A stretch of DNA of 64,000 nt from the NCBI GenBank assembly GCA_023920165.1, contig CP089275.1:682001-746000 (forward strand), in the 5' to 3' direction. The position numbers and the translations under genes were made by a program. Positions 3,748 to 43,211 of this stretch are shown here, piece by piece; position 1 is the first letter of the stretch, and each line of letters opens with the position of its first letter. The stretch comes from Curvularia clavata. Its lineage: Eukaryota. Below the pieces are notes generated by a model. The model was not told the origin of the DNA, did no database searches, and saw nothing but the letters and a program-made list of their open reading frames with translations.

Positions 3748-3764
3748 TCTTCAGTAGTATACTG
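3748..3764 (+). repeat. tRNA-Asp 5' fragment (direct repeat 1)
   Basis: TCTTCAGTAGTATAcTG matches 16/17 of tRNA 43130-43146. Confidence 0.8.
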
Positions 3765-6700
3765 AATATTGAATCGTATGTCAAATCTACGGAAACGTGT
3801 TTTAGGAATATAATCTGCTAAGTATCCCAAGCTTCCTGTCTCGCTTACCAGTTCTGGATACATAGATAGGAGAGCCAAGGCTACAGTCGAAGCTGATCTA
3901 GGAACGAAGTAGAAGGGAAGCACGCACATGGCTGAATGATGGAGATCTGTTCTCTTTCTCTCTTTCCTCTCCTTCTTTCCATTTCTTCCTCTCGCTCTCT
4001 TTTGCGTCATCCCTATCTAGGATATGTCTAGTATTAGCTACCATGATATTTTGCTACTATATCTATTTACCGAGCTTTATCCTCGTCTTCTTTACAGTAC
4101 GTGAAAGGAAGCTAATAAGGATCGCATTTTGCGGGCCCTGGAAACGACTGAGTACGAATGCGACAGAGATTAATGCTGTCTTACGCTGTACTGCAGGGGT
4201 AGACCTAACGTGTGAATAACGAGGTTTGTTCCTGCTATAATCTACAATAGAGTTAGACTTGGAAGCGATGTCGGACGCTCACGTACGATCTCTACAACAT
4301 TGTCAATTCATAGCCCACGTGGGAATCTCGGACCAAAAACGTGACCGAGTCTTATGAACGTTGTTGTAAATCGAGTTGAAACGTACCACAGGGTTGGTGG
4401 ATACTAATTCCACTGCTCAGGTTGATTATGAAATCTGGCCGGCGTTTCTTACATCGCCCGGCAGAGTTTGAAGCCGTCTGGAGTGCATACGAGACTGGGA
4501 TGTCCAAGTGCTTGCTTTTGGATTGTTCAATTCGGTTTGAGGTCTAATCCAGCCCAAAACCCCCGGCTGCATGCCGCCAGGTTGGACAACTGTAGTCTTC
4601 GACTGTAGAATTGAGTTTACAATCGCAGTTACAATTTGATGAACTTTATGCATCAGTTTGTGGTCTCTACACCCTTTTGGTTTGGCTATTCCTGCTTAAG
4701 AAATGAGAAGATGGTCTAGTCGAAGACTTAATTGTCATCTCAGTCCCTGCTTGCGGCTCTTCGGCTGAAGAGCCCTCCCATTCTAGCAAAATCTAGCATC
4801 TCCCCATACTCAAGCTGATGAGCATAACTCCTGTGCATATATTACAAACTCCTCTGGCAGACTCCCACACGTATCCGCTGTCTCTGTGTTCCTCGCAGAG
4901 CAGATTGTTAGACTGGTTGTAGACAAGCAAGGCGATGGCATGTGTGACGACAGTCTTGAGTGCAATCTGCCAGATGTGTCGTTCATTTCCTTCCATCACT
5001 GTCGCCTGCATCGCTGATTGCTAGTTATCTATTCGTTTTGACCTTGTGAGAAGGTTCAACAGATGTCAACATCTTTCATCGTATCGACAATGGTAGCAGG
5101 GCAAGGCACAACAAGCATTTGTGCAACATGGTGGGGCGGAAGGATCTCGTATACGGCTCTCAACACGCAGCTAGCTCTGGACGGCGATGTCATGTAGTGC
5201 TTTTCGGTGGTGTATTTTCGAAGCGTCGACATCTGTGTCTTCGTGATGATGACTCTGACACAACGATAGGAGCATTTTGCTTGCGTTGTTCGCGCCTCGT
5301 AGCTAGATGGGGATGTATCGCATGCTACCACAGACTACCGTGTCACAGCTAGGGAACAGCGTTGCGTTTTGAGCTTGGAAGGTCTTACACCACATATTCG
5401 TGTGCCATCCACGGCTTTGCGGCAACTCTCATGTCGCACAATGCGTCCAGAAGTGAATTCGGTGGCATATACAAAGTTTGACCCATGTGCCTACGGTCTT
5501 CACCGGTGGGGGGTTGGCTGTGCTATAGCCGCAGTGGCTCAAGTAAAAGTAACCAAAGTGGAGGCAAAACGGCAGTGTACCTATGATGATTGCTATCAGA
5601 ACTATGGAGTCGGCAAGTATCACAGGTTTGTGCCAAGGCGCCAGTCCCAAAGAGGAGTAGCCTGGCCGTGCCGTAACAAGCTGCCACTCGGCTGGCAAGC
5701 GAGTGTAGCGATACACGTCTATCTGCGGCAACTCCGACCCTGCACAGCAAACCAGTGTGTACATAGCGTAATATCGGGGGCGAAGGTTTGGCCCAAGCCT
5801 AGCTTCGGCAATCTCGATTGATGAGGTCAAGACTGGGACGTTGTATACATGCGAACAACGGGCTGTGTTCGATGTCATGTCGCAGTGCGCGGCAGCGCAG
5901 CGCGTACCTGCCATGAGGGCATGTCTGGGGACAGTGTTATGCCAGCCGCCGCCTCTATTCCCTGAAGATGGCGTAGCCGCGACGCACCGCGGAAATGTCC
6001 AGGTGAGGACATGCTGGAAATTGAGCCTGCGATCGTCGTGGGCTCGGGAACAGTCACCATGACTACGCTCAGGCTTCATTCGGCTGCACAATCCGCAAGC
6101 AAAAGATATCTTTTTGTTCCTGCTAAATGGAATGGCGGGCCAAGTCAATATGGTCTTCAGAGAACGAAGATGAAGCAGGCGGCATGTTTGCACACATGTC
6201 GTCGCCTGATCTTCGTCGCATCGCCGAAGTCGCCATGCTGAAATCGCTTCTGAGGTTCATTTGCGCATGGCGCTCGCATGAACGGCGAGAATCAGACACC
6301 AGATTGCTATTCAGAAGCGTGTGAATGGTGATGCGACGGATAGATGCGAGCGACGCTCCCAGATTGCGCCCCGCAAAGCTCGGTGATGCTTCGGACAAAC
6401 CGGTGCCGAGGCTGTGGAAATGCTGAGTACCTGGAAAGGCTGCGATTACCAAAGTCCAACAAGAGGGGACGACGACTCTCATCTGATATGCGTGTACCAA
6501 TCCTTCACGAACAAGATTCCGCTTACACGAGCCAGTTGAAAAGCACCTGCTCTACCAAGCTTTCTTGCCATGCAATCTTGTGCAGATAAGAGTTTGCTTA
6601 GCGTTGCCATCCCGCCAATCATTCCCAGCTCCATATCTTCTTCGCCCGTGTTCCCTGTCGGAGAGACACAGATTCGGACTGGTACGAGGGCGAGACTCGG

Positions 6701-6828
6701 CAAGTGTCGCCACAGAGAATATCCGCTTCCTTAGCCACGCGGCCTTCTCACGTGTGATATGAACCCGTCGTTCACCTATTGCAGCCACAAATCGTTCCTC
6801 CATCGAGACCCTTGCTAACCTGCCCAAG

Positions 6829-8394
6829 ATGTCGTCTGACGAGGAGACCGGTACGTATGGCAAGACAGCTCATATTGACGAAAAGAACTTCAATCGCACC
6901 ACCTCGCCCAATGTCGAGCTGTACAACAATGCCTACGTCAAGCAAGATGGCGGCATCCTCTCTCGCCTTCGAAGCATCGAATCAAAATTGGACGCCAAGC
7001 TTGGTATCGAGTCGGAAGCCATCAAGAGGAAACTGCCAGAAGAGAAGAAACCAGTCCGCTTCCACGAACAGCTCACCATGTTTTGTCTCTGGGCCTCCGG
7101 CACAATGAACACATCCTGTTTCGCCACTGGCTTCCTTGGCTGGGAATTCGGATTGTCCCTCAAGCAGTCCATCGTCATCATCATCTTTGCTTCGATCCTG
7201 GGAGGTGCTCTCACTGGATTCACAGCCACTTTTGGCGCCGTCACTGGTCTTCGACAGATCTCGGCTTCCCGATATAGCTTCGGTTGGTGGCCAAACAAGA
7301 TCGTTGCTCTCCTCAATGCTATCGTGCAGATTGGCTGGTCTGCAGTCGCTTGCATCACTGCAGGTCTAGCCCTCGAGGCTGTTGCAGATGGCCACCTCTC
7401 CCTTGTCGTGGGCATCATCATCTTGGCAGTAGTCGCTCTCGTAATCTCCTTCGTCGGCCTCAGTGCGATCCTGGTCTACGAGCGATATGCCTGGATAATC
7501 TTCTTCATCATCTTCATGATCTTTTTCGGCGAGGCAGGCAAATATGCCGACAACACAACTCCCGCAAGTGTGACTGGGATCAACCAATCCGGCGCTGTCT
7601 TGACCCTCATCGCCATCATCTACGGCAGCTCTTGCTCGTGGTGTACCATGGCCTCCGACTACTACGTACACTATCCTTCCAGCATCTCTCGAGTCAAAGT
7701 CTTTCTCATGACAACCTTTGGCATCGCGATTCCGACTAGCATTGGCATGGTCGCTGGCGCTGTCGTGGCATCTGCTCTCAACAATAAGCCAGAATGGAAG
7801 ACGACCTACGAAGATGATGGAATCGGCTTCTTGATCCAGGATTTCCTCTACCCACGAGGATTCGCCAAATTCCTCCTCGCCCTGCTTGTGCTCTCGGGAA
7901 TCAACACCAACGTAATTAGCATCTACAGCGCTGCTATTTCTTGCCAGCAATTCGCTCGCCCGTTCTCAAAGATCCCCCGATTCATTTGGACCTTCCTTGT
8001 CTTTGTCTGCATCCTCGGTCTTGCTCTTGGCGGCCGTGAAAAGCTCAATGCTTATCTGCAGAACTTCTTGGGTATTCTCGGATACTGGTGCACTTCGTAC
8101 TTTATCATCCTCTTCTCCGAGCACTTCCTCTTCCGTGGCGGCAACTTTGACAATTACGACCTCGATGGATGGAATGACCCAAGCAGATTACCGTTGGGCC
8201 TTGCGGCTGGTACTTCGTTTGGTTTGGGCATCATTGGCTGGTTCATGGGCATGGATCAGACATGGTTTGTTGGACCTGTCGCCAAATTGATTGGCAGCAC
8301 CGGCGGTGACGTCGGTAATGAGATGACACTTGTGATCACTCTTGTCACCTTTATTCCTCTTAGATTTCTCGAGAAGAAGTATATAGGCCGTTGA
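6829..8394 (+). CDS. NCS1-family purine-cytosine/vitamin B6 permease (FCY2/TPN1-like)
   Basis: 521-aa ORF, many hydrophobic helices, GLRQISASRYSFGWW, ASDYYVHYP and LGYW motifs. Confidence 0.9.
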   Translation: MSSDEETGTYGKTAHIDEKNFNRTTSPNVELYNNAYVKQDGGILSRLRSIESKLDAKLGIESEAIKRKLPEEKKPVRFHEQLTMFCLWASGTMNTSCFATGFLGWEFGLSLKQSIVIIIFASILGGALTGFTATFGAVTGLRQISASRYSFGWWPNKIVALLNAIVQIGWSAVACITAGLALEAVADGHLSLVVGIIILAVVALVISFVGLSAILVYERYAWIIFFIIFMIFFGEAGKYADNTTPASVTGINQSGAVLTLIAIIYGSSCSWCTMASDYYVHYPSSISRVKVFLMTTFGIAIPTSIGMVAGAVVASALNNKPEWKTTYEDDGIGFLIQDFLYPRGFAKFLLALLVLSGINTNVISIYSAAISCQQFARPFSKIPRFIWTFLVFVCILGLALGGREKLNAYLQNFLGILGYWCTSYFIILFSEHFLFRGGNFDNYDLDGWNDPSRLPLGLAAGTSFGLGIIGWFMGMDQTWFVGPVAKLIGSTGGDVGNEMTLVITLVTFIPLRFLEKKYIGR

Positions 8395-9133
8395 GCTCCG
8401 TAGGTAAAATATTTATTCCGTCCTTTGCTCGTTTATAAAGCGGCGCAACTTGACCCACTTAAATTTCTAGCTTCGCTATCTTCACCATATTGTCTAACCT
8501 AGAATCACGTGCGCTAATACAGCGATGATATATCTAGCGCCGATGCCTGTGCTTCGTAAGAAGCTACACTATCTGTGGCTGTGTTCTGTCCTCTTTCTTA
8601 TCATATTATCGACTTTCGCGCAAAGCCTCGGCCATAACGGGTCGACCGTCCTTCCTGCTAGCGTTAGGAAGGTATTCGCCGGTTTCTTAGAGGAGAAGCT
8701 AACTCGGCTAAGTCGGATATGAATTCGCCTCTTCGAGTCGGCTTCACTGCACCATACGGTGGCCTGTACAAACTAGCGCACCTCTCTTCAACGCTGTTGA
8801 ATGCAGAGGAATCAAGCATAGGGTAACTGGTGCATTATCGCTACAGAAGGAAATCTGTTGTGGGAGTATCAAAATCACCATACACTGCCGTTCGTACACT
8901 GGCCCAATCTGGCCAATCCAATGTGGGTGCTCGAAACGGATTAATGCGGTAGTCTTTGCGACAGTCGGAATGTAAAGTGTATATACGCTAGCTTGCCCCA
9001 CTCGCTGATGTGGAGAAAAGATCGAAAATGGGTGGCTCAACCGCACTCCACGCTTGCGTATCTTAGCGCAATATATGCTTGTTTTCCATTGATACAATTA
9101 TTGTTTTTTTCTCTACAAAATATGAACCAACAG

Positions 9134-9149
9134 TCTTCAGTAGTATAGT
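9134..9149 (+). repeat. tRNA-Asp 5' fragment (direct repeat 2)
   Basis: TCTTCAGTAGTATAGT identical to tRNA 43130-43145. Confidence 0.88.
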
Positions 9150-10246
9150 AGATACTGAGACGGTTGTCATCTCTACGTTAACCCGTTTTAAGACTACAGC
9201 CTGCAAAGCCATACTGAATACCTATCTCAGTGACTATTTCTGATATATGGTAGCATAGAGAACGATACTCCATGCAAAAGTTGACACTGTTTTGAAAGCC
9301 CAAGTGGGCACATGGTCGCAAAATGGAGGCCCTCTCATTTAACTTCCTAGTCGTGCTTCTGTGCTAATTTCAAGGTCCTCCAAGGTCCTGGCGTGTTAAC
9401 GAACATATCTGATATTAAAACCGCAATCAGCTTCTAATATAGTTCTCATGTAACTTTGAAATGTAGTGTAGTGCACGACTATAGCTAACGCGAAAGCTTG
9501 CGTGCTATAGAGATAAACTATCGCGCTGCTCTCTAACTCCGCAGACCTGTAGTTAACCCATTGTCTGATTTAGCACGTCCTTGTTCTTTTTTGAGCACAT
9601 CGCTACTGATATATATATACGCATGATGTAGGATACTAAGTTCTGAGTCTAGACTTTGGTAAGTGGAGTGAGTGTTACTAGAAGAATGTCGTCTTTGCAA
9701 GCGCGTACAAAGGTGGAAAGCGTCTCCCTATCTTAGGGATATAGCTGCCGTACGGTCGTACAACGATTGGGGCCTTGCATTAGCACTGCGATCGCCAGAG
9801 CCGTAGATAGGTCCTTTAGTTTGATTGCTGAGAGTGATGAGGGGTTCGGATCGTCGATGCTTGTAAGCGCTGGGCTCAGGTAGACTAGATCTGATGGTAG
9901 CTATGCTTGGTCAGGTACTATGCTACCCAAGGCTCTATGCCGTCGTGTTATCGTTAATGACCCTTCTATCTCGCAACATCATCCATTGTGGACGTTCATG
10001 GCAAGAGTGTGGCCAGAGCGGGTCGGCAGTCGGCCATCGTCCTCGCTTGCGGTGGCGGAACTGCGATACAAATCGTTCATAAACATACTGACATTTGTTG
10101 TGCTTGATTGGCCTTGCACTAGAGCGAGACTGACAACAGATGAACAGGTCGATTGATTTGGAATGATGCAGTGGTCCAGTTTCTATTGTAGGATGGTATG
10201 ATATATTATGTACTCGAGCAACCTTTCATGCTCTGCTCTCAAGTAA

Positions 10247-10383
10247 CGGCACCTTTGTCACGCAGCAGCTTCACTATCTACCCGTAGCCTCCACGTGAAG
10301 CCGCCTGCAGTGCGTTGCCGTGCCTTCTAACCTGCGCGTTGACGTCGGCGCCCTTGTCGAGTAGCAGCTTCACCACATTGTAG
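10247..10383 (-). pseudogene. Ankyrin-repeat (NLR-type) fragment
   Basis: Minus strand reads VVKLLLDKGADVNAQVRRHGNALQAASRGGYG*IVKLL, the same repeat type as the NLR at 45.8-48 kb. Confidence 0.75.
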
Positions 10384-10530
10384 CTCAAAATACACTGCTC
10401 CGTGGGGAGATCAAGGGTCTCAGAAACTCCCTATCCATCAAGAAGAGACTGTACAACAAATCCTACACCCTACAGCTTGGGAGCAATCAGGGGTATCATG
10501 GAGGAGCTGTTTTCTGGTTACCCAAGCTCA
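10384..10530 (+). mobile_element. pogo/Fot1-type transposase C-terminal fragment
   Basis: Reads QNTLLRGEIKGLRNSLSIKK...GYHGGAVFWLPK, similar to the YHGGAVFWSP tail of fungal pogo transposases. Confidence 0.55.
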
Positions 10531-10686
10531 GGATGATGAGGTATTACGACAACAATAGAGGTTTGAGGCAAAGGAATGTTACCTTGGTTTGTGTGGGGTA
10601 TCGCGCCCAGATTTGCAGAGACGATACCTCCTACTCGGTTGTGGTGTCACGACAAGATGGAATGCGGCACTTTCATGATATTGCGC

Positions 10687-11175
10687 TGCTATAAGTAACA
10701 GCGAAGGATCTCTCCTTGACCCGGCCGCATGGTAGGAGACCATCGGGCGACACGTCAGAAGGTAATGATCACCGCGGTGTAACGATCACGTGACTGGTAT
10801 CACGCCAAGACCATGGCATCAGTGAGGCCACCCTGTTCATGTGAGGACACGGCCTCGCATGAAGGGACGGTAGTCAGTGACTTCAGGAGGAAGCCCTGAC
10901 TCCAGAACAAAGGCAATGGGTATAAGAATGGATTGGATTTCATTATTACACTTATTGTGGTTAACTCAGCAAAGTTCTTCTCTTATACAGATTGATACGT
11001 AGCTATTCTATGTACTAATAGAGTTAGTTTATCTATCTTTTAGTTACATCTATAACTCCTTTCCATCCGAATCGTCAGACAACTACCGCACGGTATACTT
11101 TGATAAACCGTCTCGCCCTAACTCGGATCGAGATTAGGTAAGTATATCCCTACTCCACGTAGACCCTGTGTAACA
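10687..11175 (+). mobile_element. Solo LTR, Gypsy family A (opposite orientation to the copies at 25-33 kb and 53-61 kb)
   Basis: Reverse-complement similarity to LTR 32859-33365; ends TG...TAACA; flanked by TGCGC/CGCGC (TSD with 1 mismatch). Confidence 0.85.
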
Positions 11176-11216
11176 CGCGCACACATCTTGACTCTAAGCA
11201 AACAGATACTATACCA

Positions 11217-12593
11217 TTAGGAGTGCAGACCTACATGACCGCTCTGATTGTAATTCCTGTACATGCCCGTCTCAAATTGACGGGCCAACGCTGAACACTT
11301 CGTGTCTCCAGTAGGCATCATTTGTCCCGCGTACAAGCCGCAGAGTCCGGTTTTACGGTCGACCCACTGACTATGTTAGTACCAGAGCATACCGTTTTGT
11401 CCGTGGTGGAGCTTACCCATGTCAGATTCGGCAGACCGCCCCAAATCATAGTACCAGCCGCTTTGCCATCGATTTGGTCGTGCAGAAGAAGAAGGCCCCC
11501 AAGGCCCCAGTCCTTCTTCTGGTCTTTCTGTGTCCCACCCATAGCGTTGTTCACCTGAACCACCCACAATCAGTATGGTTCTCAGAATCACTCCACAAAA
11601 CTTACCATGTCAACCTGCAACATCGCATTGATCGCTGCCGAAGCAGCCTCACCCAACTGTGGCTTGAAGAACTCCTCAAGCGTACTCTTCTTTAACAGCT
11701 TCTCATCCTCATCGGTCGTTAGAAGAGCTTTCAAAACCTTAATGTACTCCTCTGGGCTCGTGAAGACGCCATCACCACCCATACAAGACTGCATCTCCCC
11801 TCCATCCACGTCCAGGTATCCCTGTCTCGCCGCCGTGTACCTGACAGTGGCTGACCCTTCGTCTCGGAAACTCATATCCGCCATTCTGGCTTTCATGTCT
11901 GGACGAGAACTAAGGCGGAATGTCATGTCTGTGATTCCAAGCGGTTCCCAGAGGTTCTGCCGCATGTATGCCTCAAGTGAGAGTCCCGTCACGCGCTCTA
12001 TGAGTAGGCCAGCGTAGTCGATGCCGGGGCCGTACATCCAGCCTTCTCCTGGTTCGAAGGTGAGTGGTGCGTCGTATCGCTGTAACAGCTTTGCACCTGC
12101 GCCTGGCTGTCGTCCATGGTACGCGAGCCAGTCTAGGAGCTTGGGGTGCAAGGCACTGTAAGTCAATCCACTGGTGTGCGTCAAAAGCGTACGTAAGGTA
12201 ATAGGTTTAGTGTGCTCTATTTCAATAGGCTTTCCCTCATTGTCAAAAGATTCGAGAATCTTGAAATCTTTGAGCTCGGGGATGTGGGTATAGACAGAAT
12301 CGTCAAGGGTCAGCTTGCCGCGCTCGACGAGCTGCAGTGCGCAGATCGATGTCATCAGCTTAGTGCAGGATGCTACCCACATCACTGTGTCCGGCCGGAG
12401 CGGTTTGGCGTTTTCGGACTTCATGGACGTGTTGCCGAATGATTTAGCGTACTCGAAGGAACCTGAATGTGTGAGCAAGTGCTAATGGATACATGTCATG
12501 TAGACTACCATCGCGGTTTGTGGCGAGCAAGACGCAGCCGGGTAACTCTTCTGCATCGACAGCTTGCTGGATTGTTGTTTCGAAGTCGGCCAT
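11217..12593 (-). CDS. Beta-lactamase-family serine hydrolase / LovD-like acyltransferase (multi-exon)
   Basis: SxxK motif ASCTK, LLTHTSGL, FEPGEGWMYG, WGGLPNLTW/WVDRK; exons joined through canonical GT..AG introns; start MADFETTIQ at 12593. Confidence 0.85.
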
Positions 12594-13320
12594 GGTGTGA
12601 TACTGTATACACTGCAGTAAATGGGTGGATTGATTGGTATTAGTGCATGCGAGAATAGGACGGCCGGCAACTTAAATAATCAAAATAGAAGAAGGAATTG
12701 ACAGTAACTCCAAGCAACATGGTTGGGCGTCTAGATGTAGTCGTTCGATGAGATGCTGCCTGGCCCACAGTAATGCGCGTGTCTTTAGGCAGCCACTTTG
12801 CACCCCTGTGCAGGAGCTCGGTTCGATACTACGTTTCATAAGCGCGCTAAATTATTCCACCAACCCCCTGGGAAAGAAACAATCCAAATCTTCTAAACTT
12901 CTTTCCTTTAGAGGCCTAGAAATCTACTACAACACTATTAATTTTACTTACAAAAAAACACCCAAAAACCAAAAAAACTAATCTTTTCACGGTCTCTGAA
13001 AGTTCCTTGAGAAGTTTGAGAAGTATGAAATAAAATAAGGGTAATGTTGTTGGTGTGAAGCGCACGGCATTTCTGCCCGTACTGGGTGGGGCAGTAATTC
13101 GTTGTGCATTTTGTGATGAGTAATCCAACTCAACACTCCGCAGTGTCGCACCTACCCCCCACCATTTTCATAGCCAATATTAGTCCAAATAAATTACTTC
13201 AAAGCATAATAGACAGGCCTTCTACTCTAAAAAAAAATGTACATTAAAAGTACTAGATACCAAAAAGCGTGCGCACTTTTTAACTATTACGATTAGTAGA
13301 GCAAAGAAGACACACTTAAG

Positions 13321-13490
13321 TGTTACACGGGGTCTAAAAACGGAGTAAGGGAATACTTACCTAGTCTCGGTCTGGGTTAGGGCGAGACGAGTTATCGAAT
13401 TATACCATGCAGTAGTCATCTGGCAATTTCAGTAGAAAGAAGTTGTAGATATAACTGAAGATAGATAAACTAATTCTATTAGTTAGCAAT
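13321..13490 (-). mobile_element. Partial LTR, Gypsy family A
   Basis: Begins TGTTACACGGGGTC...CTTACCTAG...GGGTTAGGGCGAG like 32859. Confidence 0.75.
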
Positions 13491-13515
13491 AGAAATGCTT
13501 TTGCTCTTATAACAC

Positions 13516-14317
13516 ATGCTAGTTGCTCATATCATCACACAGTATTCGCATCTGATCATTCCAGCCAAATGTAATCGGCATGTCCCTTTATCCTATGATG
13601 GGGAAGCCTGTTACAACTCACTATCCGCCGAGGCCTTCTCCTACCCAGAACCTTACGACAATTACTCGGAGAGCTTTTCGCATCGCAATTGCGACCTTGC
13701 TATTGAAGCGCACGGGCAGCCTCCTCCAACTATGCACCGCCCACCTAACAGTACTGCTAGCAATACTCCCTGTAGCGGATGGCCGACCCAGGAAATGTGC
13801 AACACATTCGCTTTGAATGACGTACCTGATAGCACAGTATCGCCAGTCTCGCTTGTACCTACACCTAGTGGCAGTTCAGCAGCTCGTATTCCTATCTGCA
13901 TCCTCATGTCTGGCTCGACTTCGCTGCGCGTTCTCTGACTCAGGACAACCCGCCCTTGAAGGCGAAATAACAGCAACGCCGGCTCCATGCAAGCGAGGAC
14001 AGCCCCTTCGGCAGCGCACTTCCGCCACCTCTGCTAACAGCTCCATGTCATCAAATAACGTCCGCCAGACGACCTGCGTGCCGCATACGCAAGTCGAGCG
14101 CAAGTATCGTGAAAACATCAACATGCAGCTCGAGCGCTTACGCTGGGCTGTACCAACATTACTGCAGGCTGTTGGTGTCGATGCCATTTGGGTGGCGAAG
14201 CCAAGTAAAGGTATCATGCTAGCGGCAGCGATTGACTATGTCAGCCGCATCGAGAGAAAAAGAAACGCCGCCATGGACGACATTGAGCGGCTAGCAGGCG
14301 ACGTTAGAACTAAGTAG
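13516..14317 (+). pseudogene. bHLH transcription factor, apparently frameshifted near 13.9 kb
   Basis: 3' ORF has HTQVERKYRENINMQLERLRWAVP...SKGIMLAAAIDYV; the upstream part lies in another frame and no clear intron joins them. Confidence 0.6.
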
Positions 14318-15687
14318 GCAACTCGAGAGGTATTAGCGAGCTGTCACAACTACATGACGCCCTCATGAGCCGCACGCTTAGAACACAGCATTGTTGCTAT
14401 CTCTAGCGATTTGCTGTATTCGTACTATCTTCTTATTTCATCTGGTCGTTTCTAGTCCTAGCACGAAGGATTCAAGTCGGGTTCGGTTTCTGATGCCACC
14501 CTATATCATATGTAAATGCTATCTACGAGCATCAAATTACGCGAATTTCTCGGAGTGGAAAGCCTCCATGTCTCCAAAGTCATAGTTCCAAGCTATAGTT
14601 GGTGTGTAGGAAGCGAAAAGCCCCTGCGTGGCGAGAGCCATATTCCGCGCTTCTGCTAGCCCTGCAGGGTCCCCCTCCTGCCCTATCTCTACTAGAAAGT
14701 TGGTAGCCGATACGATATCGTTGCACTGATATGGGACGGGCTGAGTCCGCTAACCTTTGATGTCGGCTAAGAACTCCTCAAAGGATGGAGGTTACCAGAT
14801 AGGAGGCGAAGCCACAGTTAGTGCCATAGAGACAGCTACAGGCAGGGATAAACGAAGAGAAATGGGTGGCGGTAAAGGAGTGGCGTAGGTAAGCTTTCTT
14901 GAGTTGGGCCAGCAATCGCGTCGGGCAGGCTTGCTAGCGCGTTAGCGGCAGATCGTTTGTTCAGGCACACAGGAGGTAGCCGTCTTAGTGGGGTAGCTGC
15001 TTCGATGATGGAACCCAAAAAACTCAAGGAAACAAGGAGAACTGTTGATTTGCCTGAAGGGTTCTACATGGCGTAATGCCGTTGCGTAAATGGGGGTTTG
15101 CTTTTTTCTTGTGGCTTGAGCTATGCTCAGGGAAACGCAGTGATTAAGATTGGCACTGCGCCGCTTGCTTAGTGCGTTTCCAGGGCACTGGCCTGGATTT
15201 TCCCCGCATCTCAACGCACGCGCACGCGGAACTAGGCATCTGTTATGTGGGACCCTGCTGAACCGAGGAAGAGCACGACGATATGTAAGCACACTGCGCA
15301 ACAATTTCAGGTCCGTATAATCCATACTGGGTGACACATGCGCCACAGCCAATTATCAGAAGGTTTCTAGGATCTGCAAGTCCGTCACTAGCGCAGCATG
15401 AAGAACAAATCAAACCACCAGCTACACCCTTGGTACGGAGCTGTGCCGGGTCCCCCATTCAAGCTGTGTGGTGCACTCGTCATATAGAGTTTTGATGCCC
15501 CTGGGGTCGAATGCACGTAACGTATGCACAGACACGAAGGAACTGCTTCGCTTGCTCAAATTATGGGGAAGGCCGCACGTTTCTGTGGCGTAAGCCACCT
15601 CCCTAGGCGTTCGATACGTATAAAGTTTGTTCTACAGCCAACGACGTAGCTGCAGATCAAGGGCTCCTGGTATGCAGGTAACTCAAC

Positions 15688-17286: not shown

Positions 17287-17935
17287 GACCATTGACGATA
17301 TGATCAAGGTATTTAATATAGTGTTCTCACGAATTCATTAGTTTCAAAGAAGAACTTGAGTGTTTAGCATACTCGTTGACTGGTATTAGGTCAAGTCCTC
17401 CATCTTCATGACCAGTACAAGTGAGATGAAGGCATCTTGGATTGCAGACATGCGTTACTCAAAGCGTAATCCCTTTGCTTTGAGGTAGATTTGCTTCTAG
17501 CCTTCCCATCACCAAGTTCGTCAGGTCTCGAGTCACCATAAGGACTGTCTAACGTGCAATACACTCATCGTGAGCTCGGCCGCTCGCGTGATCGCCTCAC
17601 GCATTCCTCGTAGTTCTGCCCAGTACGCGAGTCTATAGTGGCACTTCATCGCATGCACCTCAGCAGTGCAACCACCTCCTCCCTAAGCCAGCTCAGCACT
17701 ATCACCATAGTAAACTTTTAATATCTTTTTATACCTAACCTATAGATATTTACTTAATTAAGGCGTTTCTAATGTTCTACACATTCTTATATACTCTTAA
17801 GTAATACGATCTACTAATACTAATTTAAGTAGTCTTGCCTGCGTCGTGTCATACATATATGCTGCTCAGCTCTAGATACTGCCAATGCAGTGTACTGTAT
17901 CTTTTTGGACACGTGATAGCCTAGGTGGAGCTGAG

Positions 17936-21373: not shown

Positions 21374-21400
21374 CGTGCCATGCTCGAACCAGGCAGCCCC

Positions 21401-32797: not shown

Positions 32798-35133
32798 GGT
32801 GATATCTCAATCGGACGCTTGGTGTTAAACCGCTTACCGAATCCGTGGGTGGTCAAAGTGTTACACGGGGTCCTACTGGTTAGTTGGGAATATACTTACC
32901 TAGCCTAGATTCCGGGTTAGGGCGAGGCCAGTTTCTATGAAGTATACCGTGAGGTAGTTGTCTGGCGATTCGGTGGTAGGGATTAACGGAAGATAGACAA
33001 AACCAATCCTATTGGAAGATAGAATAACTAGTATCAATCTGAGTATGAAAGGTAACTATGAAAGATACTTTGCTGAGTTGACCACAACGAGTGTAATAAT
33101 GAAATCCAACACATTCTTATACCCATTGCTTCCGGTCCTGTCCTCACTGTCCTCACGGAATAACCCCTGTGTTCTCTGAAGTCCCTGAAGTCACTTTGGT
33201 CACGTGTGAGCGTGTCCTCACATACTAGCGTGGTTTCCCGGTCTTGGCCTGAGGCCAGTCATGTGATCGCCCTTCCGCGGGGATCATTACCTTCTGACGT
33301 GTCGCCCAATGGTCTCCTACCTGCGGCCATCGTCAAGGAGAGATCCTTCTTTGTTACTTGTAACAATCACTACGCACCCTAAAGTCCTAGAGAGCAGTTA
33401 AGCGCGCCCTATCTTTAACTGTTAAGGTCCCCTTTATCTAAACCCGCTTTCTTTTATGCAATTTTCGTCGCGTAGCGGCTGCATTAGCTGCTTTAAACTT
33501 ACTAATCTGTTTTTGTGCCAATACTAGCTTATGCGCGATAACAGCTGCCCCCTTTAAGACTTTTTTAAAAGTCTCCACTATAGACGTTGGTGAGCTGTCT
33601 AGGTGCCTCTAAATCCTCTACTTCACTAGCGTCGATTGCGACCCTATTTCAAGGGTATTCCTCAGGGTTTGCGACAGCTAGAGCTAGGTATTAACAGGTA
33701 GGGGTAATAGAGTGCGCAACTAGATATTAAGGGCGGATATAACCCATTCTAGATTAAATAGAACTAATCTAGCGCCTCAAAACTCTTCTTAGATATTGCT
33801 AGCTATAAATAATACGTTAAAAGCCCGCCTAAAGCAAGGTAGAAACTCTTGTTTAGTGATGTAGTTGATCTAGGTGCGTATAAGCAATTCGACTTGGCGC
33901 CTATAGGCCTGCTTTAAAGAGGTAAAATAGCCTATATTAAGCGGCTATAAGAGGTGAGACGAGTGTAGAGACATGCAAAGAGTAACAATTTTATTATCTT
34001 TACAGTATTTTTAGAAATCTAGCGAGTTGTAGCTTTTATAGCCGTTAATAAAGAGTAGACGGTAGGTATCTACCACCTTCTTCTTTATATGCTCATTAAA
34101 GTGCTTTAGCCACGCAAGACCAAGCTCATTAGTTGTCCAGCCGTTCTTAGAGACTCTAATAACCCAGTTCTAGGGTATATCTCTATCTTTATACCAGCTT
34201 AAGAGGTAGTGGCGCGCCTTAAGTATAATAAAGGGCGGAATCGTCTACCCGGTCGCATTGATGCCCTAGATAACCGTCGCCCACTCTCTATTACCAGGCT
34301 GGATAGTCTTTGGCCGTCCACGTCTCTCTAAAGCTATAATAACTGCTCTAGGGGTAATCTAGCCTATTATAAAGCCTGTCTCGTTAAAGTTGTACGTGTT
34401 GTTATCTTGGATACTATACTTAGCTTTTATATTAGCTACTAGACCAAACCAGTCTTAAATAGCCTTAGGATTTTTATAGAGTGCTCTCTTATAGTTATAC
34501 TTGCGATTAAACTTTATTTTAAACTTAGGGCGGCGCTTAACGAACGTGCTAGGCTAGTTTTGGCCAACCTGGCCTAAATTGCGCTTAGCGCGCAAAGAAT
34601 TGGCTATATTAGCCACATCTGCGAGCCTAGGGGGAAATCCACGTGAACTAAGATTAAGAATATGCTTAATAACCACCTCCTTCTTAAGCTTAGTTAGATT
34701 CATTATTTTAGGCCTGCGATCTGCTTGTAAATCCCGTCTATCGCGTCTTTAACGTAGTGTTATTCGAGAGACGTTATAAAGAGCTACAGCGCGTCGTTCT
34801 AAGAGATTCGCGTCCTGTTTAAGAGCTTGAAGAGCAAGCTATATTTAACATTCACTAGAAGGCTGTAACTGCTATTATTGTTGTAACATTTGTGGGTAGT
34901 AGGTATTTTGGTGGGGTCTTGGCAAAAGTGGACCGCGAACCCGTGTGGACCGCGAACCCGTGAGGTACGTTAACACTAAGTTCTTTATAAAATATAAGTG
35001 CTAGCCCTTTTATAAAGCAACTACTATCTATTTCTTTAACTCTCGTAATATATATCAGTACTTCTAGATACACATCCTTATCGGCGACTAATTTTAAGTT
35101 CTTATTGGCGATATCAAGAGTAAGCTTCCTTAT

Positions 35134-38100
35134 TGTCAGGACCTGGTCCAAATTGGGACATGTTGGTCCAATTCCCTCCTTCTTCACGCTAGTTAGTCAG
35201 CTAGGGCTTACCTAAGGCTATAAAGCCTCCACGATCGCTAGAGGTGCTCAATAGCGATTCGTCTCGTGAATATATGGCTATTAAAGCATAGTTCTCTCTC
35301 ATCTATCTCATGCTGTACCTTCACGCCACTAACAGTCTAACATTCGAATCGCTCTCCTCAAGTACACCTACAAGATGTCAGAGAGAGCCATACTAAACCC
35401 AGGTAGTCGCCAAACTCAGAGCCGCCCAAGGTCAACTCAAAACACAGTAGTAGGGGACTCACAGCCCACTCTAACTAGAGACTCAACCTAGCCATCTTCA
35501 AGTAAACTATCCGAGCCTGCCGTTACGGAGGCAGATCAGGCCGAACTAGCACAGAGAAGCCCAATTCAGGGCAGCCCAGCTCAACTTAAACCACCTCAAA
35601 CCACCATTGCTCAACAGCTAGACGAACTGCGCGCTTAGAGGCAACAAGCGCTTAACAAGCAAAAACTAAAACATCTCCAGAAAGTCAAGCGTCGGTTCGA
35701 CCAAAGTGACACAACAGTACTGACAGAGGACCTATATAAACCACACCATACAGTAGAGATACAACTAGAACTAAACATGGGAGCTCCACAACTAGAAAAA
35801 CCAACACAGTTCACAAGCCGCGATCGTACCGAATACAATCGCTAGAAACGCGAATATAAGACAACATTTAGAGAAAGCCCTAAAACGTTCTAAATAGAGA
35901 CAGTTAAGATCGATTTTAGACTTAAATATATTACTAACCCCCTACGCTCCACATAGAACGCCTATTATCACAACTACTATAGAAAAGACACAAATTGGAC
36001 ACCCACGTGGCTAGACCTAAAGACTATAATAGTAGATTCACTAAAACCACCAGAACAGTAGAAGCTTAAAGCCCACCAAGCTCTCAAACATATCAGACAG
36101 GACTAGTCTCAGAACCTAAACGACCTATTAGCCAAATTAGACACACTTTAGTCCGAATTAGGCAATTCCTACTCAGAAGAGCAGAGAGTAAGAGACTTTA
36201 TAGACGCTTTAACAATAACAGTACAGAAAGAGTTACTTTTACTCAAACTAGGTTAAAGAAGCACAATCTCAGACCTAAACGCGCGAGCGCGACTTATCTA
36301 GGATAGAATGAAAAAAGAGAAGCCTAGCAACGCTAGAACAACGCAGAATAAGCAAGCCAGAAGCAGCACACCACCAAAGAATATAAGAAAGTACGAAAAA
36401 ACCCTAAAAAAACAAAGACGGAACTCTATAGATATAAAAGGTTTATACGCGGCAAACAAGGTTTAAAGACGCGACGTAGAGGGCAAAATTGTCTATTATA
36501 ACTACGGGGAACCCAGACATATTAGTAGGAACTATAGTAAGCACAAATAAAGCCAAGCGGCACCTAAAGAACCCAAACTAGAAAAAGATAAGGGGCGGAG
36601 AATCTAGTAGCCCTACTCTCCACCTATATTGCAAGGCTAGAGCTAGAAGAGGACTTGAAGACACTTCGCGAAGCAATGTTTAGCAAACCTAGCCCACTAT
36701 TGACTATAACAGTGCAAATTGGCTAAGATCTACTCGAAGCGCTAATAGATAGAGGGTCTCAACTAAATCTACTCTTAATCTACTAAGCCAAGGATCACGA
36801 TTTAATAATAACTTCTATACCAAACTTAGTAGCAGAAGCTTTAAGCGGCGCAGAGTTTAAGATTTATAGCACTACAGAGGTGACTATAAAAGTTATAGAT
36901 ATAAGAGAGAGAACTAAATTCTAGAATATACCTTTTATAGTGACAGAAATGAAGCATTACCTAGTATACTTAGATATGCCTTAAGTCGACTTCTACAAGC
37001 CCAAAATAAGCCTCCAATCGCGTCGAGTGCTATTTAGAGGCGTAAAATATATAGATAGGGCTTTATATAAGAAAATCGCGACAGAAAGCGCCAAAAAGTT
37101 TAAGAAAACACTCCAAACGCCTATAATAGACGTTTACGCGCTCAAAGTGTCCACTATAATAGGTTAGAACCCAAGCAATAAGGAAGAGGACTAGGAGGGG
37201 TTGGAGAAGCCCAAGAACGCCCAGGTTGGCCCTGATCAAGCTAAGTTACCTTAGTTGCCACCACAATACGAGGACTTTGCGGATTTGGCCTCAGAAGAGG
37301 ATGCCAAGTGCCTTGCTAAGCATAGCCCGCACAATTTAGTAATAACCTTAAAAGAAGGCACCACGCCACCACATCAGCCGCTATATAGGCTCTCAAAGAG
37401 CGAGTTAGCACTACTCCAGAATTACTTACGTAAGTATCTCGCAAAAAGGTGGATTAGACATTCAAAGTCGCCAGCAGGCGCACCAATACTCTTCGCGAAG
37501 AAGAAAGACGGCATAATAAGGTTATATATAGACTATAGAGGTCTAAACAATATAACGCTCAAAAACCATCACCCTTTACCCTTAATTACAGAGTCCTTAG
37601 ATAGATTAGCTAAAGCAAAATTCTATACCAAGCTAGACGTCCGAGAAGCATATTATAGAGTAAGAATTAAGAAGAGAGACAAGTAGAAGACAGCCTTCCG
37701 CACCAGATACAGCCATTTCAAGTATACTATAATACCTTTTAGCCTTATAAACGCTCCTACACAATTTCAGGCGTACATACACCATATCCTTATAGGATTA
37801 GTAGATATAAGTTATATTATATATTTAGACAATATCCTAGTGTTCTCCAACACAGAAGAGGAGCACGAGAGACACGTACGCGAAGTCTTAAATAGATTAC
37901 GCGAAGCCAAACTATATTTAAAGACTTCAAAGTGTAAATAGCACACCCAACACACTAAGTTCCTTAGCTACACAGTTAGCCCCAAGAGTATAAGTATCGA
38001 CCCAGATCGGGCCAAAACGGCCCAAGAATAGCCAGAACCGCGTACAGTGCGCGATGTCCGCGTGTTTCTAGACTTCATAAACTACTATCGTCGATTCATT

Positions 38101-41100
38101 GCTAACTTCTCCAGAATCACACTACCTTTAACTAAGTTACTAAAAAAGGAGCCGAACGCCGCCAAAAAGGGCAAAGCTCAGCAAAAAGAGAAAAGCGTAC
38201 TACTAATTCTAGACAAAAACGCCAAAAGCGCGTTTAAAACGCTAAAAAACTCCTTTACAGCAGTACCTATCCTAACCCACTTTAATCCAGACAATCAGAC
38301 TAGAGCACAGGTTGATGCGTTAGAAGGAGCGATTACTGGCATCCTAAGCCAGTACATGCCCAAAGAGGCTTGCTAGAGACCCATAGACTTCTACTCGCGC
38401 AAATTAATCGCCACGGAGTACAACTATAACACGCATAACCAAAAGCTACTAGCTATCATCGCTAGTCTCCAACACTAGCAAAGATATTTTGATAGGATAC
38501 ACTTTAATCTAATTACTAACCATCAAAACCTAAAGTAGTTCATAGAAACCAAAACACTGAATCACCGCCAAGTACAGTCTTACTTAGCCCTATCAGGTTT
38601 TAATTTCACAATTGTATACCAACCTAAGAAAACAAACCCCGCTAATAGCCTATCGCGCAGACCCGACTATATAAAAGCCGCCCAAGAGCCAAAGCAGAAG
38701 AATAATAGCGCATATATGCTATCGCTACGCCATCTACTCAAATTCAATACCAAAGAGACTACTATAGCTGCAGCTACCACCACACGATTACAAAGACAGC
38801 AGAATACAGCAGCAAAGCAACATAAAGACCAGAGGCATGCAGCATTGGCTCAAAAGGCCGACTCAGAGACGGACGAATACACTTCGGACTCATATAGCTC
38901 AGAAGAAGACGACGTAGCTAAACCAAGTCCACAAAGGCTCAAACAGGGCCACTCTAGCCCAACCATACCTAAGACGGCACAGGAAAAAGCAGCAGCATTA
39001 AAATAAGGTCACGACGACCCGCTTTCTAGACATTTTAGTGCAAGACGCATATTAGAGAAACTAACGCGCCACTATAAATAGGCTAGCATAAGGAAAGACG
39101 TAGAAGACTACTACAAATTATACCTTATCTATCAAAAATCTACCCTAAAACGGCACCTGCCATACAGGCCCCTTACACCATTACCACCACCCAATAGAGT
39201 CTAGAAAGAAGTAACAATAGACTTTATAACTAAATTGCCACCAAGCAAACTACAAGACATAGTATACGACACAATCCTCGTAATAGTCGACAGACTGACC
39301 AAAATGGCCCATTACGTGCCAGCACGGTCCAATTAGAACAGAGTAGACCTAGCTCAAGTATAGTTACGCGAAGTAATCCGTCTCCATAGCGTACCACGCC
39401 AAATCATATCAGATAGAGGCCCTTTAATAAACTCCACCCATTAGAAGACCTTTCTTCACTACCTTAACTCGAAACGTATACTTACTTTAGCATACCACCC
39501 ACAAATAGATAGCTAGACTGAACGCCAAAATCAGACTCTAGAACAGTACCTCCGCTACTACTATTCCCTAGAGCAGAACGACTGGGCATTATAGATCTCA
39601 GTAGGGGAATACGCGTACAATAACAGTGTACATTCGACTACCAAAGTCACCCCCTTCCAAGCATGCAACGGCATACACCCAAGAGGCGTAGAATAGCCCA
39701 AAGACGCCCAAACTAGAGACGAAAACCCCCTAGCAGCAAGTACTGCCTCAAAAATAATCGAAATACAACAAGAGTACAAGAACAATATTCTAAAAGCGCA
39801 AGAGTACCAAAAATAGCACGCAGATAAGAAAAAACAACCTATTCCTTTTAAGATAGGAGATAAAGTACTACTATCTAATAAGCATATTAAATCCCTACAA
39901 CCAAAGAAGAAGATCGACTAGAAATACATTAGCCTAGACACAATAACTAAACAAATCGGCCCATCAGCATTTAAAGTAGATATACCTAGCCTAAAAAACG
40001 TACATCTAGTGTTCCATACATCCTTACTAGAACAGTATCACCCCCCAGATAATATACCACATCCTAAAGTCCCAACACAACACGAACTAGACAAAACAGG
40101 CGACGATGTCTACCTCGTAGACAAAATAGTGGGACATAGAAAGAACAAAAACAATTAGTAGAAATACTTAGTAAAATAGACTAAATACCCCAACTCTAAA
40201 AATATATAGAAGCCAGCCGCCAATATTACCTAAAAAACGCTTTAAAAGTTCTAGAACAAATCAAATCAGATCCCTCAACACAGACGCGGGCCAAAATAGG
40301 CCAAATAGGGCCAATAGGAGCCAAATTAGCATATATACCTTCACCTACTTTTTTCCCCAAAAAGTTTTATAGGTATTTAACAGCATAAGCTAATTAGGGC
40401 AACCTGGCCCAAATTAGTCCATATTAAACTAACATTACACAACAAAAACTAAAGAATAGAAAAGTAAAGAAAAGAGAATTTTAATTATCACCTCCATCCT
40501 AATGCCCTAGGTATCTCATATAAAAGGGAAGAAAACCACCATAGCCCATACTAACCCAATTTAGACCAAAACAGACAAAACTAGACCCAACCACCCTTAA
40601 TCACCAGCAACTGCGGCCTCGTACTCCTTATTAAGCCTTACCTTAGCTTTTTCCAAGTTCTTAATATCATTAGTAATCTTCCTCTTAGCTTAACTCTTAG
40701 CCCCCTCCTTCTCAGACATTTTTTACAAAATCTCTTTATCAATATCATTAATACGCTTCTAAAGCTCATCAGTAACATCCTTAGCAACCTTAACCTAAAG
40801 AACCAAGTTAGTCCAAATTAGAGTAATTTAGCGTAAATAGGGGGGAAAAAGATCACAAACCTCTTTCTTACGCCCACCAGAGCTATACTTAGACTTCTTA
40901 ACTCTTACCTTAACCAAAGTTTCCACCTTAATCTCATAAGCCTTCCTCTTAACCTCTTCATCCTTCTTAGAGCGGCCAAGAGCAGAAGTCTTCACACTAG
41001 AGCGGGAATCATCTTCCTCCTCAATAGCACCAGAGGAAAGAGACAGATAAGTAGCATAAGGCTCAAACCTACACAAATTAGTCCAATTTAGACCAGATTT

Positions 41101-42464
41101 AGAAAAATTAGATTACTTACTTCTTAAATAACTCAATAATAGGCTTACTAAACATACTAAGTCTAGTAACAGCCACCTCATACATTTCCCTGCGCTCAGC
41201 ACAAACTTCAGCCTCATTAGGACCCTCAGAGATATCTTTGTCAATGGCATAGAAGGCATCCTCAACCTTCCCAATAAGCTAGCCAAGTCTCACCCAGTCA
41301 GGGGAGAACTTATTAGAAGAAGACACCTAACCACTCATTTAGCTCCAAATTAGACCAAATCAGAGCAAAACAGAGCAACTTACCACAAAATAGACACAGT
41401 TGATATAAGAGCAGCAAAGACACTTCATCACCTGCCTAGGCATACCGCCAGACTCCGGTTCAACCTTATAGCCAGACCAAGCCTCAGCTATCTTAGGATT
41501 GTCGATGTCTAACATAACGCAACCCGCTCTACCAAAAGTAACAGACTCATTATCCCTAGAGACGTTCAGACAGCATATACAAGCGTAGTAAGACCTCTAG
41601 CCCTTACGTACGAACAGATTTAACACCATACTACAGTTAACAGATCCAAGTGCGTTCGTCATAGTTCAAGTAGGTCTTAAAGGCCCCAATTTGGGGGTGT
41701 TTAGGACGAATCAGTCAAATCTATCGCAAAATAGATTATATAGGAGGAAACAGCCTAAAAAGAAAAATTAGTAGAAAACTCTAAGTCTAGAGGAAGAACC
41801 TCAGAAAAAGGCAACAAAACCAAAGTCGACTGCAAACTAGCCCAAATTAGGCCAAACTATTGCAAACAGACCGTGGGTGGAAGGTGTCGGGCCCAAACTA
41901 AGAAGACCCACAAAATAGGAGTCTACTTACTAAAGTGGGGTTGGTAGACTATGGGGTGTATTAGGCTTAGTCAAAAACTGGCTATTGTATCCCTGGATCC
42001 GCACTAAATTAGCGCGTCACGTGACTCTTGGCGCTGCCCAGGAGTACCCTGATGGGCCGGGTTGGCCCAAAGTGGGGCAGTCGGCTAGGCAGCAGCGCAA
42101 AACTCCGCTATTATAACGTCATAGCCCTAGGGCGGTAAGCAAATAAAATACACCCTCCAACCCACACGGCGGCATCACCCAGTAATCGCTCAAACTAGGC
42201 GGCAAGCATAATAAGTTACGCAGCTAGAACAGCTACACCCTAAGAAGGGAGATATTATCAGGACCTAGTCCAAATTAGGACATATTAGTCCAATTCCCTC
42301 CTTCTTCACGCTAGTTAGTCAGCTAGGGCTTACCTAAGGCTATAAAGCCTCCACAATCGCTAGAGGTGCTCAATAGCGATTCGTCTCGTGAATACATGGC
42401 TGTTAAAGCATAGTTCTCTCTCATCTATCTCGTGCTGTACCTTCACGCCACTAACAGTCTAACA
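35134..42464 (+). mobile_element. Ty3/Gypsy chromovirus family B, full length, heavily RIP-mutated
   Basis: 209-bp LTRs 35134-35342 and 42256-42464, TSD CTTAT; RT fragments SPAGAPILF, LDVREAYYRVRI; RNase H, integrase and chromodomain remnants. Confidence 0.93.
40597..41662 (-). pseudogene. Antisense three-intron accessory gene inside Gypsy B (RIP-damaged)
   Basis: Introns 41327-41383 and 41069-41120 (GTAAGT..CTAA..TAG) and about 40796-40860 keep one reading frame; Cys clusters in exon 1 and K/E-rich C-terminus. Confidence 0.65.
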
Positions 42465-43129
42465 CTTATCCTCGACCAGCCGTAATAGACGGTGTGTTCT
42501 TTCGTAATAAAGAAGAATATTAAATATAAGAATCTTAGATTACTACTATTATTGAATACGTTATAATTGCAGATCTGCAGGTTCTTAAGAGATCGTATAA
42601 AAGACGTGTCCGCTCGATGAGTATACTAGAGTATTTCATCTCTAGTAAGCTGTTAGATTTTGCTAGTAACCTAGATAAAGATATTTCGAGCAAACCCTAA
42701 AACCTATAGAGCGAGTCCAGACATTGTAACATTGTATATAGTTACTTAATTCGAAATTGAGTTTGGGACCGACGAAAAAGAGGCCGCGATAGTGTATTTA
42801 GAAGAGGTAGAAACGATTAAGGCAATACAGTATAGACGTACTGCTACTCCTACAACACGTTAGTAATATGAAACTAGCAATGTTCATCTAGGGCAACTAA
42901 CTGACTAGATTTCTAGACTTGACATTGACGCTAAGGACTGAATGTGTTCTTATCATGACTGCGGGTTTGGTGGGTGCATGACAATCGATGGGGAAACGAG
43001 GGGCTTGGCAGTGCACGGCCTTCGTCGCAGTGCGTAAGCTGATTCTAACAACTACTTATATAATTTTGAAGATTATACTGCCACCATCAACCAGCAATCA
43101 CAGCTTGTACAATGTAAGCCAAGATTCTA

Positions 43130-43211
43130 TCTTCAGTAGTATAGTGGTCAGTATTTCCGCTTGTCACGTGACAAATCGCGGGAGACCGGGGTTCAATTCC
43201 CCGCTGGAGAG
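43130..43211 (+). tRNA. tRNA-Asp(GTC) with 10-nt intron (43167-43176)
   Basis: Acceptor stem TCTTCAG/CTGGAGA, A box TAGTATAGTGG, anticodon arm TCCGC-TTGTCAC-GCGGG after intron removal, B box GGTTCAATTCC. Confidence 0.96.

Follow-up and report, generated by a model that had tools for sequence, protein, structure and literature searches.

Displaced 5' fragments of a tRNA-Asp gene in Curvularia clavata as a possible relic of tandem site-specific insertion

A 64-kb stretch of the Curvularia clavata genome (contig CP089275.1, positions 682,001 to 746,000; here called the window) carries an intact tRNA-Asp gene and, upstream of it, three displaced copies of the gene's first 17 nucleotides (nt). These core copies start at 3748, 9134 and 24090 of the window and are oriented as the intact gene is, on the + strand. 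Their identity to the tRNA ends sharply at nt 17, in the D-loop region. Behind each core lies a leader homologous to the other two, and the DNA that follows is unrelated from one segment to the next. Tentatively, we read this array as what remains of three ancient site-specific insertion events, all in one orientation, at the 5' end of the one tRNA-Asp gene. We rank this reading first on the combination of an intact gene, its displaced fragments, conserved ends, unrelated contents, a well-kept core and an apparent restriction to this locus.

Core copies and leaders upstream of the tRNA-Asp gene

The gene was recognised by both ARAGORN and Rfam. Its Rfam score of 49.2 bits, against a gathering score of 29, is the sole gathering-level Rfam match in the window. 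Its predicted fold is a cloverleaf that includes a short intron (z -3.4), and a run of seven T follows the gene. The gene and the copies of its 5' end are as follows.

3748 to 3764, + strand: core copy 1, tRNA-Asp nt 1-17 with one mismatch, at nt 15
9134 to 9150, + strand: core copy 2, tRNA-Asp nt 1-16, then A for G at nt 17
24090 to 24106, + strand: core copy 3, tRNA-Asp nt 1-17 with no mismatch
43130 to 43212, + strand: intact tRNA-Asp(GTC) with short intron, followed by a T7 terminator (ARAGORN and Rfam)

With up to two mismatches allowed, the window holds four matches to the 17-mer TCTTCAGTAGTATAGTG, always on the + strand, with one mismatch at 3748, one at 9134 and none at 24090 or 43130. 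The chance expectation at this threshold is 0.01, and none of 100 shuffled windows reached four copies. A first-pass annotation, made from the letters of this stretch, had reported that the first 17 or so nt of the tRNA-Asp recur at 3748, 9134 and 24090; the four co-oriented copies against 0.01 expected bear this out. At the third core, identity to the tRNA gene covers 18 nt, beginning at -1. The 3' half of the tRNA-Asp occurs only once in the window. Each segment is bounded by a 17-bp direct repeat that reflects the target site.

Each core belongs to a larger repeated unit of roughly 300-450 nt, one unit per core copy and all three mutually homologous. Aligning the window with itself by blastn gave 84% identity over 86 nt between copies 2 and 3 (9134-9219 and 24090-24175) and 76% over 85 nt between copies 1 and 3, with the matches beginning at tRNA position 1 or 9 nt before it. 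Gapped local alignments extended the homology to 3709-3991 with 9073-9380, 3739-4116 with 24081-24509, and 9099-9360 with 24045-24356. These alignments scored 117-142, where shuffled sequences scored 30-32 +/- 3-4 (30 shuffles each). The earlier claim of a mutually homologous leader behind each core is thereby well founded.

3709 to 4116, + strand: unit 1, with upstream stretch, core, leader, CACATGG motif (3925), pyrimidine tract and a distal part in common with unit 3
9099 to 9380, + strand: unit 2, with core, leader and CACATGG motif (9309), lacking a long pyrimidine tract
24045 to 24509, + strand: unit 3, with core, leader with its body duplicated, CACATGG-like motif (24309) and pyrimidine tract

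A unit opens with a short upstream stretch, to which the 17-nt core is joined; then come a body of some 90 nt, a variable part and a block of about 70 nt that holds the CACATGG motif. In copies 1 and 3 a distal part follows, made of a pyrimidine tract and then a further 100-150 nt, and ACCAGTTCTGGA is likewise present in these two copies. The motif, ACCAGTTCTGGA and the pyrimidine tracts all lie where the first-pass annotation had placed them. In unit 3 the leader body is duplicated internally in tandem (24107-24199 and 24196-24268), which moves the later motifs by about 40 nt relative to units 1 and 2. Blocks kept in all three copies are nt 1-14, TGTCA, GTTTTA and CTGC.AAG. In all three, TTCAGTA (nt 3-9) and TACTGxx (nt 20-26) also form an imperfect inverted repeat, which straddles the end of tRNA identity and is too short to be significant on its own. 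When both strands of the 64 kb were searched with an nhmmer profile of the unit, only these three copies were found, all upstream of the tRNA-Asp gene; the one other match was the 17-mer of the real tRNA (E = 0.028).

The core is better conserved than the leader. Over nt 18-105 the leaders share 66%, 66% and 75% identity in pairwise comparison, with transitions about as frequent as transversions, and the cores differ pairwise at 2, 1 and 1 of 17 positions. At the leader rate, the probability of so few core mismatches is 0.036, 0.009 and 0.048, the pairs not being independent. Either the core has been constrained, or its history is younger than that of the leader. A younger core is what would be expected if it had been reset against the tRNA gene at each insertion, with the leaders coming from element lineages that had already diverged.

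Weak homology also reaches 9-40 nt upstream of the core. Core copy 3 and the tRNA gene share an upstream stretch of about 38 nt, TATAT.ATTTTGAA....CCACCATCAA.CA, with a score of 33 that was reached by 1% of 800 null comparisons. The similarity upstream of copies 1 and 2 is marginal (0.035), and the other four pairs are at chance. In the copy that lies before the tRNA gene, the stretch is displaced:

43057 to 43093, + strand: stretch like the 38 nt that abut core 3, lying 36 nt farther from the tRNA gene (score 33)

Directly upstream of the tRNA-Asp, ARAGORN also called a 'tRNA-SeC(tca)' at 43029-43101 on the - strand. The call has no gathering-level Rfam tRNA match, is probably a false positive, and overlaps the core-3-like stretch just listed.

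Past nt 17 the units show no sign of a tRNA origin. The 75 nt that follow were no more tRNA-like than shuffled sequences (fractions reaching the observed score 0.26, 0.18 and 0.22 in 1000 shuffles). The B box, GGTTCRANNCC, is found in no unit; its matches in the window are 19079-19089 on the - strand and the real tRNA. None of the three units folds better than its shuffles (z +0.78, -0.67 and +0.50), and folding the three together gave only a weak consensus structure (-8.8 kcal/mol), in which the covariation term was unfavourable. At E values up to 1, no Rfam family fitted two of the units, and the third matched only a Listeria small RNA model at 20 bits (E 0.13; gathering score 90), which is meaningless. 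No target-site duplications were found flanking the units, and reading their sequence revealed no A-rich tail or tail like that of a long interspersed nuclear element (LINE). The downstream flank of the tRNA gene has no homology to the distal parts of the units.

Three identities for the units were considered and set aside. A tRNA pseudogene was rejected on the lack of tRNA likeness past nt 17, folding no better than that of shuffles and the single occurrence of the 3' half. A long terminal repeat (LTR) with the primer-binding site of a minus-strand retroelement was dropped, since normal genes occupy the place of its interior and the LTR is found in no second copy. Helitron ends were judged by eye only, and the flanking bases misfit the Helitron rule.

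Proposed tandem insertion and its rivals

The favoured reading would work as follows. Each incoming element would have brought its own copy of tRNA nt 1-17 beside a conserved left end, the leader. Recombination inside the 17 bp would then leave the resident 5' fragment stranded before the element's leader, while the element's far end would put a fresh nt 1-17 before the rest of the tRNA gene, so that the gene is whole again. Repetition of this event at the rebuilt gene would stack the elements head to tail, with the DNA between cores having arrived as cargo. The enzyme may have been a tyrosine recombinase that was supplied in trans or has since been lost.

The first-pass annotation had described a tandem array of cargo-bearing islands integrated at the tRNA-Asp gene. 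Its structural part held up, in the displaced co-oriented 5' fragments, the leaders, the unrelated DNA between them, the kept core and a contig break at 9134 described below; neither an integrase nor inverted repeats came to light. It had also taken the tRNA-proximal segment as probably the newest. That claim is not supported: its basis is zero against one core mismatches, and a retrotransposon in the same segment is old, with LTR pieces that agree at only about 90%.

Several results weigh against tandem insertion, among them those of the recombinase search. We compared with Pfam the 317 stop-to-stop open reading frames (ORFs) of at least 45 amino acids that lie in 3300-43600 outside the intact Ty3/gypsy element, and none of the 317 matched Phage_integrase, DUF3435 or another site-specific recombinase. 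Twenty-four read-through frames, with stops read as X, behind the leaders and before the tRNA likewise had no recombinase domain. In the rest of the window, no recombinase was found among the 81 scanned of 93 ORFs of at least 55 amino acids; the 12 left out overlap genes already named by Pfam. Integrase and transposase domains that are present belong only to nested transposons (DDE_1 and retroviral-type integrases). Neither tblastx nor Pfam read-through detected a decayed homologous gene behind the leaders. For the check that the first-pass annotation had proposed, a DUF3435 or tyrosine-recombinase match of the gene next to the leader, there is no candidate in any segment or among the scanned ORFs of the window.

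The segments themselves add further counts against it. Their right ends share at most about 38 nt, and the sole match, between core 3 and the tRNA gene, is offset by 36 nt. The weak similarity upstream of core 1 is not predicted by the simple model unless the array continues leftward. No terminal inverted repeats were found between segment ends in 16 combinations, the best reaching 0.045 and 0.058. Transposons apart, segment 3 is free of cargo, and the length of segment 1 is a mere 5.4 kb.

Contigs from public runs that contain the stretch were aligned to 1001-21000, the runs of relatives being mixtures of short contigs. Among the 15 of 79 joints listed, none ran across a whole segment, and we saw no empty site, no excised circle and no polymorphism between strains. 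One boundary did emerge. In a relative about 87% alike (X4, record 22), the match of a 1453-nt contig covers 9134-9552 and breaks off exactly where core 2 begins, and about 1040 further nt of this contig do not align to 1001-21000. The break marks a structural boundary at core 2 that fits an element end. In X4 and a second relative, X5, the distances to the contig end given at 9210 (77) and 9216 (83) may be compatible with pieces that end at 9133/9134. The bin of core 1 is thinly covered in X4 and X5, which is not evidence of absence.

A separate run, possibly from the source genome, addressed the abundance of the units. The bins of copies 1 and 2 had depths of 98.7 and 136.8 against 94.2, and a solo-LTR bin rose 14-fold to 1348. 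Depth close to single copy implies that the unit has no abundant family at 80% likeness or above; copies less than 80% alike are invisible to this test, which makes it weak evidence. A scan of metagenomes with a unit-specific IUPAC pattern returned three loci, all of them chance matches in AT-rich unrelated DNA.

These depths bear on the strongest alternative, which we consider unlikely: that the units are copies of an old, diverged, dispersed repeat of about 300-450 nt, akin to a short interspersed nuclear element (SINE) or a small non-autonomous element, with a 5' end taken from tRNA-Asp. The clustering would then reflect coincidence or local hopping, and the DNA between the units would be ordinary chromosome. 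Near single-copy depth, beside a 14-fold rise of the LTR bin in the same contigs, speaks against such a family, although the test is blind below 80% likeness and copy 1 is only 66-76% like copies 2 and 3. The homology begins about 9 nt before tRNA +1, as an RNA polymerase III (Pol III) transcript would, and nt 1-17 hold the A box, going by its consensus. No unit, however, holds a B box, and nothing tRNA-like follows nt 17. The unit size falls inside the 140-493 bp that PMC5063351 gives for low-copy tRNA-related SINEs of Aspergillus fumigatus, yet target-site duplications and an A-rich or LINE-like tail are missing. The contig break at 9134 in X4 would suit an element copy at a different locus too. 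Neither the other 24 kb of the window nor the minus strand holds a further copy, and we judge, by estimate only, that a low-copy family scattered at random would be very unlikely to place three copies in one orientation, each of them upstream of the cognate tRNA gene.

We regard as quite unlikely a history in which one ancient insertion or rearrangement made a chimeric junction of tRNA upstream DNA, nt 1-17 and a foreign leader, of which about 450 nt were then copied locally twice more, with the remaining DNA gained or lost later. Such copying would carry along the weak homology upstream of the core seen between copies 1 and 2 and between copy 3 and the tRNA; all copies are indeed local and co-oriented, and copy 3 shows that the leader is prone to local duplication. 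A tandem or segmental duplication should, however, take neighbouring DNA too, and the segments share nothing else by blastn or tblastx. Neutral decay should also wear the core as it does the leader, whereas 1-2 of 17 core positions are mismatched against a leader divergence of 25-34%. Copying of no more than about 450 nt to places 5-20 kb distant is not known from any mechanism other than transposition, which counts against this history as well.

Very improbable, in our view, are three paralogous copies of a functional host sequence, such as a small non-coding RNA gene or a regulatory module with a tRNA-like start: the blocks conserved in all units (nt 1-14, TGTCA, GTTTTA, CTGC.AAG) and the inverted repeat TTCAGTA/TACTGxx kept in all three would suit it, but no unit folds better than its shuffles, the consensus fold is weak, no Rfam family fits, the B box is absent and no + strand gene follows any unit.

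Comparison with known mobile elements

Four published systems resemble the array in part. Prokaryotic islands of the tyrosine-integrase type restore the tRNA gene that they split and leave a displaced fragment, and tandem arrays of them are known (PMC4383910). As with prokaryotic islands and prophages in tRNA genes, the array of tandem insertions proposed here has a target tRNA gene that is intact, accompanied by displaced pieces of that gene which point the same way. As with these islands, too, the fragment begins exactly at the end of the gene and stops inside it, stacking is head to tail at one gene, and unrelated contents lie behind a conserved end. The locus differs from theirs in being eukaryotic and nuclear, and it has no recognisable att arms. 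In the Islander set, 159 of 3919 islands left 5' fragments, according to PMC4383910; the fragment here is the 5' end, unlike that of most Islander islands. Identity ends in the D-loop region here and at the anticodon loop, the T loop or the T/acceptor junction there. Islander requires an integrase gene for each island of a tandem array, whereas the segments here have none.

Starships of the families Enterprise, Arwing and Voyager target 5S ribosomal DNA (rDNA) with direct repeats of 6-16 bp (PMC11162782). Among fungal elements they offer the nearest parallel to the array. The array shares with them a small Pol III target gene, a fixed orientation, accessory-type gene cargo and a long direct repeat that matches the target, 17 bp here against the 6-16 bp given in that source. 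Its neighbourhood is of the Pezizomycotina type, as seen from its CFEM, HET and NACHT-ankyrin genes. PMC11162782 also describes tandem and nested insertions for Starships. Unlike Starships, the segments have no DUF3435 captain as the first 5' gene, and their lengths are modest: 5.4 kb, 15 kb and, once transposons are subtracted, about 1.9 kb. Terminal inverted repeats, occasional in Starships, are found at none of the segment ends. The 5S insertions disrupt their gene in the account of PMC11162782, whereas the tRNA gene here would be rebuilt. We assign the array to neither the island nor the Starship family, because the defining gene (integrase or captain) was not found. In the literature searched, of which supplementary insertion-site tables may hold cases, we found no report of Starships or Cryptons targeting tRNA genes.

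AfuSINE2 elements of Aspergillus fumigatus likewise have a tRNA-derived 5' end followed by a body unrelated to tRNA, and the units match them in length range, low copy number and fungal host, as described in PMC5063351. Unlike AfuSINE2, the units are tRNA-like over 17 nt only and have no B box, target-site duplications or tail, and they are grouped upstream of their cognate gene. Dada DNA transposons have tRNA genes as their insertion sites, tRNA-Asp among them, and often enter at the A-box region (nt 8-13); the families described in PMC8869645 are from fish and lamprey, with duplications of 6-7 bp and a DDE transposase. The likeness to Dada lies in the proposed sequence-specific insertion of a eukaryotic DNA element inside a tRNA gene. 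The difference lies in the repeat, here 17 bp from nt 1, and in the lack of a Dada-type transposase in the window.

A wider claim would be that filamentous fungi harbour, or once harboured, integrative elements that carry cargo, target the first 17 bp of tRNA-Asp, rebuild the gene with their own copy of these, stack in tandem and are mobilised by a recombinase in trans. We hold this possible and doubtful. Such elements would be the eukaryotic mirror image of bacterial tRNA-gene islands, with a crossover in the D-loop region and a duplication of the gene's 5' part in place of its 3' part. If they exist, the safe-haven targets of fungal elements that mobilise cargo would include a tRNA gene beside 5S rDNA, and it would be the first such target in which the gene is rebuilt, not split. 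In bacteria, rebuilding of the gene lets islands pile up at one site and makes it a hot spot of gene gain. The array would also supply a search rule for eukaryotes, namely an intact tRNA gene with co-oriented 5' fragments that each bear a conserved leader, which could reveal such elements and their recombinase. Were the units copies of an old dispersed repeat, the finding would be ordinary.

Segment contents and neighbourhood

The genes of the window form a neighbourhood of filamentous ascomycete type. Left of core 1 lie genes with the Pfam domains FMN_bind_2 and B3_4, and right of the tRNA lie a HET-NACHT-ankyrin gene (Pfam) and transposons. The contents of the segments are listed below, with gene names from Pfam.

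3765 to 9133, + strand: segment 1, with leader, about 2.6 kb with no recognisable gene, and an NCS1-type permease (6763-8394)
9151 to 24089, + strand: segment 2, with an ankyrin fragment, solo-LTR pieces and four Pfam-named genes
10281 to 10430, - strand: ankyrin fragment of segment 2
10687 to 11127, 13365 to 13483 and 17938 to 18210: solo-LTR pieces of segment 2
11588 to 12481, - strand: beta-lactamase-type gene of segment 2
13817 to 14317: HLH gene of segment 2
15836 to 17286: CFEM/Fung_rhodopsin gene of segment 2
21401 to 23203, - strand: HET gene of segment 2
24107 to 43129, + strand: segment 3, with about 1.9 kb of non-transposon DNA and nested transposons
25188 to 25242 and 34902 to 34972: inverted ends (about 55 bp) of a DDE_1 DNA transposon that is split by an intact Ty3/gypsy element
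25477 to 33365, - strand: intact Ty3/gypsy element with 507-nt LTRs (25477-25983 and 32859-33365) that are 100% alike
35130 to 35342 and 42252 to 42464: LTR pieces, about 90% alike, of a decayed Ty3/gypsy element

Beyond the units, blastn and tblastx found no homology between segments at the DNA or the protein level. Pfam upholds in part the cargo that the first-pass annotation had named: the NCS1 permease, hydrolase, HLH, CFEM and HET genes are recovered, and a 'kinase remnant' and a 'leader gene remnant' that it had placed in segment 3 are undetectable.

Segment 2, at 15 kb, contrasts in size with segment 3, in which core 3 stands only about 1.9 kb from the tRNA gene once transposons are subtracted. 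The intact Ty3/gypsy element of segment 3 encodes gag, protease, reverse transcriptase, RNase H, integrase and a chromodomain, and is apparently intact. Its insertion is recent, as judged from the 100% identity of its LTRs. An extra partial LTR copy stands in tandem beside its first LTR, at 25984-26456.

Behind leader 1, the stretch of about 2.6 kb at 4100-6700 has a GC content of 53% and long ORFs on both strands without a Pfam domain, and it is covered in part by contigs of relatives. The longest ORF there (5432-6256, - strand, 275 amino acids) matched no longer protein, gave no hit in an exhaustive phmmer search of 1.84 billion representative proteins and is probably non-coding.

In segment 2, a short ankyrin-repeat fragment (10257-10376) matches the ankyrin array of the HET-NACHT-ankyrin gene, which has a period of 99 nt and spans 45848-48838. 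It draws very many contigs of relatives with loose ends on both sides, and has the look of a repeat unit of NLR-type genes that is present in very many copies and is shuffled fast. Farther along the same segment, eight contig records of the source genome have loose ends at 19075/19077, and depth is about doubled over some 600 nt; 19075-19700 is an unclassified repeat with a sharp boundary. The B-box-like GGTTCGATGCC lies just inside it, at 19079-19089 on the - strand, with no visible tRNA-like head.

A third Ty3/gypsy copy, decayed into short ORF pieces, occupies 53682-61043 on the - strand. Its LTRs, at about 53682-54169 and 60568-61043, have a likeness of 76-78% to the LTRs of the intact copy. 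In the last 3 kb of the window, GC content falls to 30-35%.

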